This document shows positions 31,762-46,381 of a stretch of DNA of 54,653 bases, piece by piece. Where the stretch lies: the IMG/VR virus record IMGVR_UViG_3300042698_000041, positions 1-54,653 of that record, one strand, 5' to 3'. Each line of letters starts with the position of its first letter. Position 1 is the stretch's first letter. Position numbers and translations under genes: made by a program. A model generated the notes under the pieces. That model had not been told where the DNA came from and ran no database searches. It saw nothing but the letters and a program-made list of their open reading frames with translations. Origin of the DNA: a virus.

Positions 31762-33267
31762 TCACCCCCAGTGGTTCAACTCCCCGATGATCGGCATCTT
31801 GTCGGTGGGCACATATCCCAGCGATGGTGCCGAAAAGTTCAGCGGCGAAATGACCCGAGACCTACGCCGCTCGCCTTCCATCAGGTGCCGAACGGCATGG
31901 ACAAGGGCATCAAGCCGGTCCGGCGAAGCCTTTGATGAGAGCGGATCGAAGGTCAGCATCTGGGTTTCCAGCTTGTCGAAAACGCCCAGGTGATGCACCC
32001 TGCCTTGCGAATACCTCATCGCCACCGGCTCGGCACGAAGCTTCTTTCCCTGGTTGGAGAACACCGGCACCAGCGGCGGATTGATGACTTCGGACGGGAA
32101 CACTCCGGCGCGCTGAAGCTCCCGGAAGGCATCGGTGAAAACTTGATGCATCCAGGCTTTGCCGAGGTTGGATTCGTATACGAGAGTGTCGCAGTGGTAG
32201 CGCTCGAAGACTCTCCAGGCATGCATAGCGGCATCCCGCCCTGCCAGTTTCGTCGTCTCATCGGCAATGACATAGGCATGGTCCTTGTAATCCCGGCTGA
32301 CCACGACGACACCCATTTCGTCGCCATCCTCATCGCCGGTCAGGCCCGGATCAACACCTACGGTCCGGTGGGCTACCCGATCGGGTCCGATCTCCAATCT
32401 GTTGGCATGGATGACTGAGTAGCTGAACAGAGCCCCTGTGACATCGTCCAGGAGTTCTCCATACAACTCCTGACGGCCAAGTGCCGTGCCCTCGTAAGTC
32501 TGCCGAAGCTCCTCAACGGCATCCTCAGACAGATTGATCATGTTGTCGAAGGTGCTTCCCCGGACAATGCAGACCTTCCATTTGTCCGGGTCGGACACCC
32601 AGTTCTTGAGCAACATAATTGGCTTAGGCGTCGTAGTAACCAATGCCCTGGGCTTGTCCCCGGGAATGTCGGCACGAAGAGCCGGACGGATGCCCTCGCG
32701 CCAGGTGTCCTCGGGTGCCGCCCATTTGATCGGCTCATCCAGCCACACATCGGCCAGGTTCTTGGACCGGGCGGCATCGATCGTGGCGCCGGTGAGGTGA
32801 ATGACCGCACCGGTTTCCAGCAGCCGGACATAGGGCTTGGGGCTCTTGGTGAAGGTGTATTTGTTCTCTACGCTATCGATCTTGCGGTTGCTGATGACCT
32901 CCTCGAACCCCATCCGTTGCAACACCCGGATCACCCCGGAGGGTCCTTCGGCACAAGAGGCCACAGCATCGGAGATGTTGTAAGCCATGATGAGACGCTC
33001 GGTGGGGAACCCGGAGGAGTCGTAGGGATACTCAAGGGTCCGGGAGACAATCCACTCGGCACCGGAACGGGTCTTGCCGAAACCACGTCCGGCCAGCATC
33101 AGGCAAATGGACCAGTCTCCTTTGGGAGGCATTTGCTCCGGGCGTGCCACCCAGAACCATTCCTCCCGTGCGATCATCTCCAAGACTTGGGGATCAAGCG
33201 AGTCAAGGAACTCGTGACGAAGATGCTTCGGCATCTGCATCACGCGCTGCTTGAGACTGAGCCCCAT
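31762..33267 (-). CDS. terL: terminase large subunit
   Basis: Walker A GRGFGKTRSG, VWLDEP Walker B-like motif, 501 aa. First gene of the late operon. Confidence 0.9.
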   Translation of the reverse strand: MGLSLKQRVMQMPKHLRHEFLDSLDPQVLEMIAREEWFWVARPEQMPPKGDWSICLMLAGRGFGKTRSGAEWIVSRTLEYPYDSSGFPTERLIMAYNISDAVASCAEGPSGVIRVLQRMGFEEVISNRKIDSVENKYTFTKSPKPYVRLLETGAVIHLTGATIDAARSKNLADVWLDEPIKWAAPEDTWREGIRPALRADIPGDKPRALVTTTPKPIMLLKNWVSDPDKWKVCIVRGSTFDNMINLSEDAVEELRQTYEGTALGRQELYGELLDDVTGALFSYSVIHANRLEIGPDRVAHRTVGVDPGLTGDEDGDEMGVVVVSRDYKDHAYVIADETTKLAGRDAAMHAWRVFERYHCDTLVYESNLGKAWMHQVFTDAFRELQRAGVFPSEVINPPLVPVFSNQGKKLRAEPVAMRYSQGRVHHLGVFDKLETQMLTFDPLSSKASPDRLDALVHAVRHLMEGERRRSRVISPLNFSAPSLGYVPTDKMPIIGELNHWG

Positions 33268-34668: not shown

Positions 34669-36261
34669 ATGACTAGGTTTAACAAGCGTCCATCGGGGCT
34701 TATCGTCGCGAACCAGCCAATCGTGTCGACCGCAAATCCCACGGCACGCACTGGCAACAGCGCCCCTGGGTTCACCCGCGATGCCGAAGGTGAGCTTTTC
34801 CTTCTGGCCGTGAGCAACTTCGTGGGCCAGGACATGCACTATGAGAAGGGTGTCGCTCGTGACGCCAGGTTCAAGAGCCTGGTCGCACAGGTGGCGGTGT
34901 CCAATCCCGAGTGGATGAATCGCTTCCTGCCTTGGCTTCGCAACGAGGCCAACATGCGGACCGCCTCCCTGGTGGCCGCTGTTGAGACCGTCCGGGCACA
35001 GCTCAAGGCACCAGGCGGTCCTATCACAGGATTCGGTCGAGCCCTGATCAACTCGGTGCTGACTCGTGCCGATGAGCCAGGTGAGATGCTCGGTTACTGG
35101 AAGGCGACGTATCCAGGCGAGCAAATCCCCAAGCCGATCAAGCGTGGCATCGCCGATGCTGTGGCACGCCTGTACACGGAGCGCAACACGCTCAAGTACG
35201 ACACGGCATCGCACGGATTCAGGTTCGGTGACGTGCTGGAACTAACCCACGCGGCACCGGACAAGGGATACCAACGGGCGCTGTTCAAGCACCTCATCGA
35301 CCGGCGCCATGGACGTGGCGGCACGTCCGAGTCGTATGTCGGACTGCCCATGATCATCGAGAACATGCGGGTCCGTTCGCAAGTCGATACCTTCGGCAAC
35401 CACGAGATCCTGCTGCGTTCCGACGTGCTCAAGGCCGCTGGGATGACCTGGGAGGATGCTCTGTCCCTGGCCGGAAACAAGCTGCCCAAGAACCAGCTGT
35501 GGGAAGCCCTGATCCCGAACATGGGGTACATGGCGCTGCTTCGCAACCTGCGCAACTTCGATGAGGCGGGGGTGTCGGACAAGACTGCCACCTGGGCCGG
35601 GGTGGAACTGGCAAGCCCGGAGAAGGTTGCCCACTCCCGGCAGCTGCCGATGCGGTTCCTGTCGGCCTTCCGCTCGGTGTCCAATGTTCGGTGGCACGTG
35701 GCACTGGAGCACGCACTTCAGGCGTCGTTGAACAACATCCCGGAGTTCAAGGGTCGCACGTTGATCCTGATCGACACCTCGGGGTCAATGTCAAGTCAGT
35801 TCGGCAAGGACACGCAGTTGTGTCTGTGGGACGCGGCTGCGATCTTCGGTTGTGCCTTGGCCCAGCGATGCGAAAGTGCCAATGTGGTCAGCTTCTCCAA
35901 CTTGACCAAGCCCTTCCCGCTTCCCCGGGGAGAGTCTTTGATCCTGTCGGTGGACCGTTTCCGCAAGGGATACTTTCTCAACGGCGGCACCGACACTGAA
36001 GGTGCCGTGCGGACCCACTTCCACGGTCACGATCGGGTCGTCATCCTTACCGATGAGCAGGCCAATCACCACAGTGCACTACATGTGGCGTCCAGTGTTC
36101 CTATCCACATCCCGGTGATCACGTTCAACCTTGCCGGGTATCGGGTGGGTCACGCGCCTTCTGGCACCCCGACCAGGATCACCATTGGTGGCCTGTCGGA
36201 TCAGGCGTTCAAGCTGCTCCCTGTGCTTGAGAGCCGCGCCAAGGGTCAGTGGCCGTTCTGA
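34669..36261 (+). CDS. rsr: Ro60/Rsr ortholog (TROVE domain + vWA domain)
   Basis: 530 aa. N-terminal FTRDAEGELFLLAVSNFVGQDMHYEKG and HEAT-like repeats. C-terminal vWA with MIDAS LILIDTSGSMS. Confidence 0.8.
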   Translation: MTRFNKRPSGLIVANQPIVSTANPTARTGNSAPGFTRDAEGELFLLAVSNFVGQDMHYEKGVARDARFKSLVAQVAVSNPEWMNRFLPWLRNEANMRTASLVAAVETVRAQLKAPGGPITGFGRALINSVLTRADEPGEMLGYWKATYPGEQIPKPIKRGIADAVARLYTERNTLKYDTASHGFRFGDVLELTHAAPDKGYQRALFKHLIDRRHGRGGTSESYVGLPMIIENMRVRSQVDTFGNHEILLRSDVLKAAGMTWEDALSLAGNKLPKNQLWEALIPNMGYMALLRNLRNFDEAGVSDKTATWAGVELASPEKVAHSRQLPMRFLSAFRSVSNVRWHVALEHALQASLNNIPEFKGRTLILIDTSGSMSSQFGKDTQLCLWDAAAIFGCALAQRCESANVVSFSNLTKPFPLPRGESLILSVDRFRKGYFLNGGTDTEGAVRTHFHGHDRVVILTDEQANHHSALHVASSVPIHIPVITFNLAGYRVGHAPSGTPTRITIGGLSDQAFKLLPVLESRAKGQWPF

Positions 36262-42292: not shown

Positions 42293-42365
42293 TGGTCACT
42301 AGCACAATAGGCAGTGCACTGGACTGTTAATCCGGTAGATCCCAGTTCGAGTCTGGGGTGGCCAG
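42293..42365 (+). tRNA. tRNA-Asn (anticodon GTT)
   Basis: Acceptor tggtcac/gtggcca. Anticodon arm ctgga-ctGTTaa-tccgg. T-arm cccag-TTCGAGT-ctggg. Confidence 0.85.
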
Positions 42366-42367
42366 CT

Positions 42368-42470
42368 GGGAACGTAGCTTAGAAAGGCGCAATGACGTCT
42401 GAGCGCCGAGGAATAGAGCGCTGGCCCCTTAAGCCAGTGTGCGCGGGTTCAAGTCCCGCCGTTCCCGCCA
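42368..42470 (+). tRNA. tRNA-Lys(CTT)-like gene with C33 and a hairpin insertion in the D-loop, CCA encoded
   Basis: Perfect acceptor gggaacg/cgttccc plus G plus CCA. Anticodon arm ctggc-ccCTTaa-gccag. D stem gctt/gagc encloses a 35-nt loop containing hairpin ggcgc/gcgcc. Confidence 0.55.
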
Positions 42471-44152: not shown

Positions 44153-44236
44153 ACCCCCGTAGCTCAGCGGGATGAGCGCGCCACCCCAACCGTCAAGGTC
44201 ACGGCGAGGACACAGGTTCGAATCCTGTCGGGGGTA
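44153..44236 (+). tRNA. tRNA-like gene with enlarged, non-canonical anticodon arm
   Basis: Perfect acceptor acccccg/cgggggt, D-arm gctc-agcgggat-gagc and T-arm acagg-TTCGAAT-cctgt. The central arm cgcc...ggcg is 28 nt with no standard 7-nt loop. Confidence 0.45.
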
Positions 44237-45563: not shown

Positions 45564-45962
45564 ATGACACAGAAGCAGAAGACACGTTTGGTCCCCACGG
45601 CAGTGGTCCTGGCCTTCCTGTTCTTGATCCCTGTGATCTTCATCCCGGTGATCAGGTCCGGTCTGAACAAGGACCGCACCATCTGGGTGACAGTGGACTG
45701 GGAGCCCAACCGCAGGCACGGGCAGGGAAGTGGCGTCAGCATACTCCTGAACATCACAGGTAACCCTCCAAAGGCGGAATACCTGTACAACTCGGCATAT
45801 GTACGCTCATTTACCCTCAAACCCGGGACAGTTGTCGACGTGGTGGCCAAGCAGGAGACAGGGACCTACCTACGCTGCCTGATAAGCCAGGTGGGAGGCA
45901 TGGAGAACAAGGTGGATATCCCAGGCAAGGGGACGGTCCCATGCAGACTGACAGTGGTGTAG
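45564..45962 (+). CDS. MmpS-like membrane-anchored protein (paralog 2)
   Basis: N-terminal TM plus beta-rich domain with ...LRCLISQVGG... / ...PCRLTVV. Confidence 0.45.
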   Translation: MTQKQKTRLVPTAVVLAFLFLIPVIFIPVIRSGLNKDRTIWVTVDWEPNRRHGQGSGVSILLNITGNPPKAEYLYNSAYVRSFTLKPGTVVDVVAKQETGTYLRCLISQVGGMENKVDIPGKGTVPCRLTVV

Positions 45963-46381
45963 TAGGAAAGCGCCAAGCCGTCATCGTGGACATCGACGGC
46001 ACCTTGACACACATGGGTAACCGGCATCCCTGGGACATGGCCAAGGTCTTGGAGGACAGGCCCAACCTTCCTGTGATCCAAACTGTGCATGCCCTGGTGC
46101 GCTCGGGGCTTGTGGTGGTGTACATGACGGGACGCTGGGAACGCTCCAGACAGGACACGGTGCGGTGGTTGCAACTGCATACGGCTTACCCGTACGAGAA
46201 GCTGCTGATGCGCGACGAAGAAGATAATCGGCAGAACTGGGAGCTGAAATACGAGTTGTATCAGCATCATGTGGCACCGACCTATGATGTTCAGATCGTT
46301 CTTGACGACCAGGAGGAAGTGGTGTCGATGTGGCGCAACGATCTTGGCCTTCCCTGTTTCCAGGTGGCTCCAGGGATATGA
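45941..46381 (+). CDS. HAD-superfamily phosphatase (polynucleotide 3'-phosphatase-like)
   Basis: DxDxT motif VIVDIDGTLT. MTGRWERSR, then LLMRDEEDNRQNWELK and VLDDQ fit a small capless HAD phosphatase. Confidence 0.6.
   Translation: MQTDSGVVGKRQAVIVDIDGTLTHMGNRHPWDMAKVLEDRPNLPVIQTVHALVRSGLVVVYMTGRWERSRQDTVRWLQLHTAYPYEKLLMRDEEDNRQNWELKYELYQHHVAPTYDVQIVLDDQEEVVSMWRNDLGLPCFQVAPGI

Follow-up and report, generated by a model that had tools for sequence, protein, structure and literature searches.

A conserved tRNA-like gene with a D-loop hairpin and C33 in the tRNA array of a Ro60-encoding phage

Architecture of the tRNA-like gene

We characterized a tRNA-like gene at positions 42368 to 42470 (plus strand) of a viral DNA of 54,653 nucleotides (nt), IMG/VR record IMGVR_UViG_3300042698_000041, the whole of which is called the window below. 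The window is the ~54.6-kb genome of a tailed soil phage encoding a terminase, a portal protein, a major head protein, a tape measure protein, and a primase, and the element lies inside a tRNA array extending from 37.1 to 46.6 kb. Immediately upstream, with a 2-nt spacer, is a tRNA-Asn(GUU) gene (42293..42365, plus strand) called by ARAGORN and scored at 59.3 bits with Rfam, and cotranscription of the two genes is probable. An Asn-type tRNA also adjoins the homologous elements of two related loci described below, L032 and L178, with a 1-nt spacer in the latter. A canonical tRNA-Lys(UUU) gene, which an original prediction made from the sequence alone had also noted, was confirmed at 41690-41762 by ARAGORN and Rfam (73.8 bits).

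The stems, D-loop hairpin, discriminator G, CCA, T arm, and C33 of that prediction are all present, base for base. From 5' to 3' on the plus strand, the acceptor strand GGGAACG (42368..42374) is followed by TA, the D stem 5' strand GCTT (42377..42380), an enlarged D-loop of 35 nt (42381..42415) composed of AGAAA, the insert hairpin GGCGC-AATGACGTCTGA-GCGCC, and GAGGAATA, and the D stem 3' strand GAGC (42416..42419), which pairs with GCTT through one U-G pair. After a single G come the anticodon arm CTGGC-CCCTTAA-GCCAG (42421..42437) with its 5-bp stem, the 5-nt variable loop TGTGC (42438..42442), the T arm GCGGG-TTCAAGT-CCCGC (42443..42459), the acceptor 3' strand CGTTCCC (42460..42466), which matches the 5' strand perfectly over 7 bp, the discriminator G (42467), and an encoded CCA (42468..42470). 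In the 7-nt anticodon loop CCCTTAA (42426-42432), position 33 is C (42427), the anticodon CTT occupies 42428-42430, and A37 lies at 42431. The insert hairpin (42386..42407), a predicted helix with its own 5-bp stem, encloses a core at 42391-42402 that is conserved among relatives, and directly after it stands GAGG (42408..42411). Judging from the canonical tRNA fold, the GG of GAGG is likely to be the G18-G19 pair that docks on the T-loop. Since the hairpin follows 4 to 5 A-rich nucleotides and precedes this GG, it would sit in the variable pocket at about position 17, where the contact between G18-G19 and the T-loop could be kept alongside it.

The element thus has the cloverleaf of a tRNA, that is, a 7-bp acceptor stem, a D stem, a 5-bp anticodon stem with a 7-nt loop, and a 5-bp T stem with a loop of the UUCRANY consensus, and these parts covary as shown in the next section. 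With a canonical tRNA-Lys(CUU) (RF00005) it shares in addition the 4-bp length of the D stem, the 5-nt variable loop, the UUCRA T arm, the CUU anticodon with U36-A37-A38, and the location in a tRNA array. It differs in its D-loop, which has 35 nt and an internal hairpin instead of ~7 to 11 nt with G18-G19 (a possible G18-G19 being found in GAGG), in C33 instead of U33, in G73, and in that one relative carries GCU. A73 is the usual tRNA-Lys discriminator and is present in the canonical tRNA-Lys genes of the window and its relatives.

ARAGORN listed ten tRNAs in the window, and the element was not among them; the program searches for transfer-messenger RNA as well and reported none in the window. 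At a relaxed threshold, the Rfam tRNA model RF00005 aligned only 42409-42467, as a tRNA lacking the D arm, with 28.2 bits against a cut-off of 29. We rejected the corresponding fold, in which AGGAAUA is paired with the 3' acceptor strand, because the full 7-bp acceptor stem and the D stem covary; the alignment arises because GAGG merely resembles the GGG at the start of the acceptor stem. The minimum free energy fold recovered the acceptor, insert, anticodon, and T helices (-42 kcal/mol; z = -2.4), and a promoter and terminator scan around the element found nothing exceeding shuffled expectation. The architecture of tRNA is among the most constrained in biology, and the element descends from a tRNA yet falls outside its usual bounds in detector score, D-loop size, and U33. 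Standard tRNA finders therefore overlook a class of phage tRNA genes.

Family members, covariation, and conservation

A blastn search with the region, the L032 copy, and a class 2 element (see the next section) against 50,697 GenBank phage records returned ordinary tRNA matches only. The handle for finding relatives was the VWA protein of the window (370 amino acids; 40291-41403), which is encoded inside the tRNA array. A single-protein search for related viral loci and an exact lookup of this protein were both empty, and relatives were gathered by a profile of VWA homologues, which yielded 160 further loci from IMG/VR and JGI metagenomes. The VWA homologues lie on many metagenomic contigs of 52 to 56 kb with a shared gene order: terminase, GntR, TROVE, YrlA, tRNA array, VWA, and tRNAs. 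Besides the window, the search set (2.7 Mb in total) comprised 184 loci that were related or had matched a pattern, designated here by L and a number. It was examined using a purpose-written scanner for tRNA-shaped elements with a D region of any length, which was run on all but the last seven loci, and a covariance model, R1, built from two copies.

Four distinct full-length members were found, i.e., that of the window and three homologues, all from independent samples. R1 scored the window copy (42368-42467) at 118.8 bits, L032 (= L165; 4907-5006 of IMG/VR UViG_3300050510_000109) at 116.7 bits, L178 (= L179; 13210-13308, identical copies in two independent SRA runs) at 85.5 bits, and L001 (8888-8983 of Logan SRR16630595) at 66.5 bits, whereas ordinary tRNAs reached at most 56 bits and did so with the insert deleted. 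The VWA proteins of the member-bearing phages are 44 to 67% identical. Pattern scans of IMG/VR returned the L032 contig, two chance matches in coding sequence, and a partial look-alike, L168, with no further genuine copy, and a scan of one genome each of 185,579 bacterial and archaeal species returned five matches, all by chance within coding sequence and without tRNA shape; both of these large-collection scans needed near-exact motifs, which divergent members would escape. The look-alike (~3472-3560 of L168, an unrelated tRNA-rich viral contig) stands directly 3' of a canonical tRNA-Lys(CUU) and has an anticodon arm, CTGGC-CCCTTAA-GCCAG, identical to that of the window, including C33; its D arm looks normal, and the variable and T region is irregular.

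MAFFT misplaced the insert and the acceptor stem of L001, and curated and model-guided alignments were used instead. In the model-guided alignment, all 84 stem cells of the four members are paired, and 12 of the 21 cloverleaf pairs have undergone compensatory changes on both sides (acceptor, 2 of 7; D stem, 2 of 4; anticodon stem, 4 of 5; T stem, 4 of 5), counts that come from only four distinct sequences. Every control was clean: none of 500 column shuffles matched the observed pairing and compensation, and a shift of the 3' partners by 1 to 3 columns left 38 to 55% of the cells paired.

The insert sequence is under strong constraint. The 35-nt D-loop architecture is common to L032, L001, and L178, and the core A-R-U-G-A-Y-R-U-C-Y-G-A is invariant at 8 of 12 positions among the four members and identical in these three (AGTGATATCCGA; in RNA letters, AGUGAUAUCCGA). 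The flanking AAGG and GAGG are invariant, the latter in 4 of 4 members. At the base of the insert helix (GGY/RCC), the window and L178 share C-G as the third pair, where L032 and L001 have U-A, giving one compensatory pair, and the next pair is G-C in the window and G.A in the other three.

In contrast to the insert, much of the remaining sequence varies. Only C33, U36, and A37 are invariant in the anticodon loop; the anticodon is CUU in the window, L032 (whose anticodon arm is identical to that of the window), and L001, and GCU in L178, which carries the same insert. None of the 5 variable-loop positions is invariant, the discriminator is G73 in the window and L001 and A73 in L032 and L178, and the CCA is encoded solely in the window copy, the 3' ends of L032, L001, and L178 being ACGT, GCTC, and ACTA, respectively. 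The lysine type proposed in the original prediction thus holds for three members by anticodon and is not a family trait. Because anticodon and discriminator vary, we regard the elbow hairpin and C33, rather than Lys identity, as the hallmarks of the family, which may be written as the insert AAGG..ARUGAYRUCYGA..RCC-GAGG combined with C33, U36, and A37. The check proposed alongside that prediction, namely, conservation in related phages, gave a clear result, in that C33 and the insert are present in 4 of 4 members, including the identical L178 and L179 copies from separate runs, and their recurrence in independent samples excludes an assembly error.

These data also bear on the view that the element is a pseudogene, decaying or neutral, left to drift after a tRNA-Lys(CUU) copy had gained an insertion and the U33C change. 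Degenerate copies are frequent in phage tRNA arrays (the window itself has 40006-40078, 42162-42233, and 39327-39402), and the family is rare, with four distinct members in the window and 184 loci, one IMG/VR contig, and no GenBank phage. Drift would, however, erode both pairing and insert sequence, whereas none of the 21 cloverleaf pairs has been lost in any of the four members, double compensatory changes having preserved 12 of them; the insert and C33 persist down to 44% VWA identity, and the core is nearly invariant. The pseudogene view is largely refuted by this covariation and appears very improbable. Thus, the element is a real, selected, and structured tRNA-derived gene.

Insert hairpin, C33, and possible roles

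The searched loci also contain D-loop hairpins unrelated to that of the element, which we call class 1. Class 2 genes (L164, 9128-9228; L090, 528-628; L002, 9741-9843) have a D stem GUUG/CAAC and a long hairpin in two tiers, whose lower stem covaries and whose tip, YGG-UGCA-CCR, is conserved; their anticodon loop, Y-A-CAA-A-R, has A33, and the CAA anticodon is not accompanied by the long variable arm of tRNA-Leu. Class 3 genes (L004, 7815-7917; L174, 1590-1694) have an acceptor strand beginning with CCCCCAA, a D stem GCUU/RAGC, and a hairpin CCAG...CUGG, and their anticodon loop is either C-U-GAU-U-A, with U37, or an 8-nt loop containing CAU. In all three classes, the unrelated hairpins occupy the same D-loop site and are followed by RGG, and the anticodon loop is nonstandard in each.

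Further unusual D regions were observed in the same loci. The class 3 insert of L004 contains AGUA...GAA, resembling a loop E or sarcin-ricin motif. In L021 (20384-20484) and L163 (12555-12649), the D stem encloses a giant structured insert, and no anticodon arm is recognizable; in L041 (6636-6756), from an AT-rich phage, a 67-nt D region is combined with a normal UGU (Thr) anticodon loop.

The insert of the window copy fits what we take to be the signature of a K-loop: stem GGCGC, a 3-nt bulge AAU, GA, CGUCU, GA, and stem GCGCC. A K-loop is typically a protein-binding motif. With the kink-turns and K-loops of box C/D, box C'/D', and the 5' stem-loop of U4 small nuclear RNA, the window insert shares the 3-nt bulge ending in U, the tandem G.A/A.G pairs, and the short loop. 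In this sequence-level comparison the other three members fit more loosely and deviate from those motifs, having G.A as the last pair of the C-stem, beside the bulge, and a 4-nt bulge with one extra base. An L7Ae-family partner was not found: when 2528 open reading frame segments from the window and seven related loci were searched by phmmer with L7Ae, 15.5K, and YbxF sequences, the lowest E value was 0.2. Two palindromes were considered as dimerization sites. A kissing-loop dimer through the 6-nt palindromes GACGUC/GAUAUC of class 1 is not claimed, the evidence for it being one CG-to-UA change, and the class 2 palindrome GGUGCACC proved to be the intramolecular YGG-UGCA-CCR hairpin tip. A search of the phage genomes for an antisense target of the insert core found none beyond the element itself. 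Conservation is stronger in the core sequence than in the anticodon arm, which points to a specific binding site more than to simple steric shielding.

We also considered that the insert might be excised after transcription, as an intron-like or processing hairpin, loss of ~22 to 24 nt leaving a D-loop of 11 to 13 nt. Indeed, removing CGCAATGACGTCTGAGCGCCGAGG yields AGAAAGGAATA, a plausible 11-nt D-loop; besides, the flanking AAGG and GAGG repeats are conserved, the phage has a PNKP phosphatase domain of the RNA-end-healing type, and the array holds tRNA-like genes with inserts at other sites, such as the anticodon region of 44153-44236. Conversely, the core is conserved across divergent tRNA bodies, which suits part of a mature RNA better than a spacer, and no endonuclease or ligase was identified. 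To our knowledge, protein-dependent tRNA splicing and splicing endonucleases are not known in bacteria, whose tRNAs, when they carry introns, are interrupted in the anticodon loop by group I ribozymes of >200 nt. In archaea and eukaryotes, some pre-tRNAs have introns in the D-loop and share its interruption with the element; they are spliced at bulge-helix-bulge motifs (PMC3241643, PMC4090602). The element has instead a simple hairpin, and inspection of the sequence and the predicted folds revealed no such motif (two 3-nt bulges and a 4-bp helix) at the insert boundaries, so that an intron-bearing pre-tRNA of this type was rejected. Altogether, excision seems very improbable.

As to C33, 37 of 647 (~6%) normal-length tRNAs that the scanner found in these loci carry it, a frequency far above that expected from the near-universal U33. 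They span Glu, Asp, Ala, Val, Ile, Thr, and Met anticodons, among others; examples are L019 7883-7955, L011 9143-9213, L016 12698-12769, and L033 7194-7267. Since it recurs over many isotypes, C33 looks like a recurrent, selected trait of the tRNAs of this phage group and looks compatible with working tRNAs there. In vitro, Escherichia coli TsaBCDE does not introduce N6-threonylcarbamoyladenosine at position 37 (t6A37) into a U33C tRNA (PMC8887486), so C33 is able to alter enzyme recognition, and by analogy t6A37 would probably be missing, in a bacterial host, from a C33 tRNA that reads ANN codons. Separately, we noticed tRNA-Asn paralogues with a CUA anticodon, C33, and the loop U-C-CUA-G-G (L002 13344-13420, L003 11934-12007, L177 11727-11801, and L178 13134-13208), which ARAGORN labels Pyl. 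From their sequences, they are possible amber suppressors. The stop codons of 15 confident window genes are 1 TAG, the rarest, 4 TAA, and 10 TGA.

Tentatively, we favor the reading that the element is still a decoder of AAG (Lys) in this phage and that C33 and the elbow hairpin alter how host tRNA-directed enzymes see it. The RNA would be transcribed with the neighboring tRNA-Asn within the array, and its 5' end would probably be cut by RNase P. It would then adopt the normal L shape, as it retains all four stems (acceptor, D, anticodon, and T), the T-loop, and a GG through which D- and T-loops could touch. The irregular hairpin of ~22 nt, seated in the variable pocket on the 5' side of the D-loop, would stick out at the elbow, the outer corner of the tRNA. 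The enzymes affected might be anticodon-loop nucleases, the t6A37 machinery, and elbow readers, and a supply of usable tRNA would be maintained for the phage while host tRNAs are under attack. Expression, processing, charging by lysyl-tRNA synthetase (LysRS), decoding, and evasion of host enzymes are the parts that we infer. Three facts speak for decoding: the element is the sole CUU-anticodon gene of the window, the slot of the canonical CUU gene in relatives is remodeled here with CUA (40006-40078; see below), and AAG makes up 203 of the 235 Lys codons (86%) in confident window genes.

For the evasion part, there is a precedent in the published hypothesis that changes in the anticodon loops of phage tRNAs evade host nucleases (van den Berg et al. 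2023, PMC10264068), which makes the idea of a resistant variant reasonable. The element shares with those tRNAs a phage origin and an odd anticodon loop beside nuclease cleavage sites, tRNA-Lys being a classic target. It differs in that C33 is unmentioned there and the changes described are confined to the anticodon loop, whereas its own most conserved feature is the D-loop insertion; resistance would follow only by analogy. In two further studies, T5 tRNAs are reported to act against PARIS and retron effectors (PMC11464382, PMC11555353). The nuclease-resistant or decoy tRNA put forward in the original prediction is plausible on such analogies, and it leaves the D-loop hairpin, the most conserved part, unexplained. 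Nothing indicates PrrC specifically, the nuclease that had been named there. The accompanying suggestion of a replacement for tRNA-Lys fits the window, with its single CUU gene, and fails as a general account, since L001 and L032 keep a canonical tRNA-Lys(CUU). The loop of the relatives' canonical gene, CUCUUAA, differs from that of the element at position 33 alone.

Several observations weigh against a decoding role. The canonical tRNA-Lys(CUU) adjoins the element in L001 and L032, so that there is no need for the element as a CUU decoder there. The discriminator varies, and the L178 loop, G-C-GCU-A-U with G32, matches no standard bacterial tRNA; its short variable loop shows that it is not a bacterial tRNA-Ser despite GCU. 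The sequence conservation of the insert core exceeds that of the anticodon arm, and the loops of classes 2 and 3 (A33; U37; 8 nt) look less like those of decoders. U33 has an important part in the anticodon U-turn, and ANN codons should be decoded less well when t6A37 is lost. Furthermore, E. coli tRNA-Tyr could no longer be detected in vivo once an engineered aptamer had been placed at this position of its D-loop (PMC5397188).

Many of these observations would be explained by a non-decoding tRNA mimic, in which the tRNA body provides processing, stability, and recognition and the actual role is to bind something; we give this competing reading slightly less weight than the decoder. It might be a decoy or competitive inhibitor of a host tRNA-targeting defense enzyme, its loop being a poor substrate owing to C33, or a modular scaffold resembling Y RNA, with the D-loop hairpin as a protein handle and the tRNA body as a tether to tRNA-binding machinery. 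The insert core is the most conserved segment, while the anticodon (CUU in three members, GCU in one), the discriminator, and the variable loop vary; an abnormal anticodon loop accompanies the insert in every insert-bearing class; and L001 and L032 have a canonical tRNA-Lys(CUU) alongside. The K-loop fit of the window insert, such loops being typically protein binding, points the same way. On the other hand, that fit is imperfect in three members, the genomes hold no complementary RNA target, and no candidate binder emerged, the L7Ae-family search in eight phage sequences (best E = 0.2) included. A full acceptor stem with discriminator, the CCA of the window copy, and the conserved U36-A37 are, moreover, what is expected of a chargeable tRNA, and the window has no other CUU tRNA although AAG is its main Lys codon.

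Comparison with other tRNA-based RNAs is relevant to both readings. The same phages already use a scaffold tRNA mimic, YrlA beside Ro60 (PMC4201824), which favors the mimic. YrlA and Y RNA (RF02553; Chen et al. 2014, PMC4201824) share with the element a tRNA-derived modular design with an extra module and an occurrence in the same phages near Ro60/Rsr. YrlA is, however, circularly permuted, with a closed acceptor hairpin and, instead of an anticodon stem, a Ro-binding stem formed by its 5' and 3' ends, whereas the element is arranged like a normal tRNA, with an anticodon arm and with 5' and 3' ends that are free and carry CCA. Membership in this family is ruled out by the topology and by the Rfam model RF02553, which gave no match to the element at E values up to 10. 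Engineered aptamer-tRNAs (Spinach-tRNA, PMC5397188; allo-tRNAs, PMC7590224) also carry a hairpin or aptamer on a tRNA body, D-Spinach at the same site (C16-G18). They are artificial, and the D-loop fusion was unstable in E. coli, insertions in the V-loop or V-arm alone having worked; this destabilization likewise speaks for the mimic, whereas the element is natural, small, and conserved.

A review of natural noncanonical tRNAs describes long and short D stems, missing arms, and 8/4 or 9/3 acceptor branches, with no D-loop hairpin (PMC7609411), and the literature searched contained neither a natural tRNA with a D-loop hairpin nor C33 as a trait of phage tRNAs. It also contained nothing relevant on elbow recognition by defense nucleases (Cas12a3, Schlafen). 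A conserved D-loop hairpin in several unrelated versions, always with an abnormal anticodon loop, suggests that these phages exploit the tRNA elbow in an undescribed way, possibly to evade or block tRNA-directed immunity by a new route or to build a new kind of tRNA-based scaffold. A bolder extension, which we think unlikely, is that the Ro60/YrlA soil phages evolved hairpin-tagged tRNAs, in at least three unrelated classes, as non-decoding, tRNA-mimicking parts of ribonucleoproteins that trap, inhibit, or redirect host tRNA-targeting immunity or tRNA-modifying enzymes. Just as speculatively, such RNAs would combine, on a complete tRNA body, a conserved hairpin for binding protein or RNA at the elbow (~17) with a deliberately nonstandard loop (C33, A33, or U37), a conceptual mirror image of Y RNAs. 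The element is in any case a natural chassis for hairpin-tagged tRNAs, and it raises the question whether charging and decoding are possible for a tRNA that has C33 and an elbow hairpin and probably lacks t6A37.

Phage genome and other unusual genes of the array

The array is flanked and interspersed by genes connected with RNA. A Ro60/Rsr orthologue with a TROVE domain is encoded at 34669-36261 (plus strand), and a YrlA-like permuted tRNA mimic was found with the YrlA model, below threshold, at 37161-37271 (plus strand). In this phage group, one or two YrlA-like RNAs lie directly downstream of Ro60/Rsr (in relatives, L001 6761-6868 and 6909-7017, L002 7650-7776, and L003 7623-7731); they score 31.9 to 41.2 bits, under the Rfam cut-off of 69, although the T arm, closed acceptor hairpin, and D arm are all clear. 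The combination of Ro60 and YrlA in phages has been described previously (PMC4201824). A stand-alone protein with a PNKP-type phosphatase domain (HAD_PNKP, 150 bits), an RNA 3'-end-healing enzyme, is encoded at 45941-46381 (plus strand) and conserved in L002, L003, L004, L175, L183, and L184; no kinase or ligase partner of it was identified. Together, Ro60/Rsr, the YrlA-like RNA, and the phosphatase constitute an RNA-damage and repair context, which speaks in favor of a decoder with evasion features.

Other aberrant tRNA-like genes, all on the plus strand, occur in the window. The gene at 40006-40078 fills the slot of the relatives' canonical tRNA-Lys(CUU) and has a body related to theirs; its anticodon region, CCGGC-AUCUAG-GCCGG, has a 6-nt loop (8 nt if the last pair opens) with CUA within it, so that, from its sequence, it may be an amber-suppressor-like, frameshift-type, or damaged tRNA. 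At 42162-42233, a 5-bp stem, UCCCU/AGGGA, closes a loop of only 4 nt, ACAC. The gene at 39327-39402, called as tRNA-Phe(AAA), has the loop U-G-AAA-U-C, with G33 and U37, and homologues in L177 (11109-11184) and L178 (9829-9904). The gene at 44153-44236, missed by ARAGORN and scored at 48.5 bits by the Rfam tRNA model, has normal acceptor, D, and T arms and an insertion in the anticodon region, where the stem CGCC/GGCG closes a loop of ~20 nt with a small hairpin. This type is conserved at 83 to 89 nt in L001 (13258-13346), L003 (13870-13953), L183 (13074-13161), L177 (13180-13262), and L175 (5911-5994).

The virus is a bacteriophage (Caudoviricetes) with an actinophage-like terminase (31762-33267), which is ~35% identical to those of Arthrobacter, Gordonia, and Microbacterium phages; with a likeness of only ~35%, an actinobacterial host is no more than presumed. 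The terminase gene is uninterrupted in the window, whereas in some relatives the large-subunit gene contains an intein (Intein_splicing domain) or has an HNH endonuclease gene splitting it or next to it, the loci concerned being L176 2183-4498, L183 97-2445, L003 2254-2745, and L177 3617-4168.

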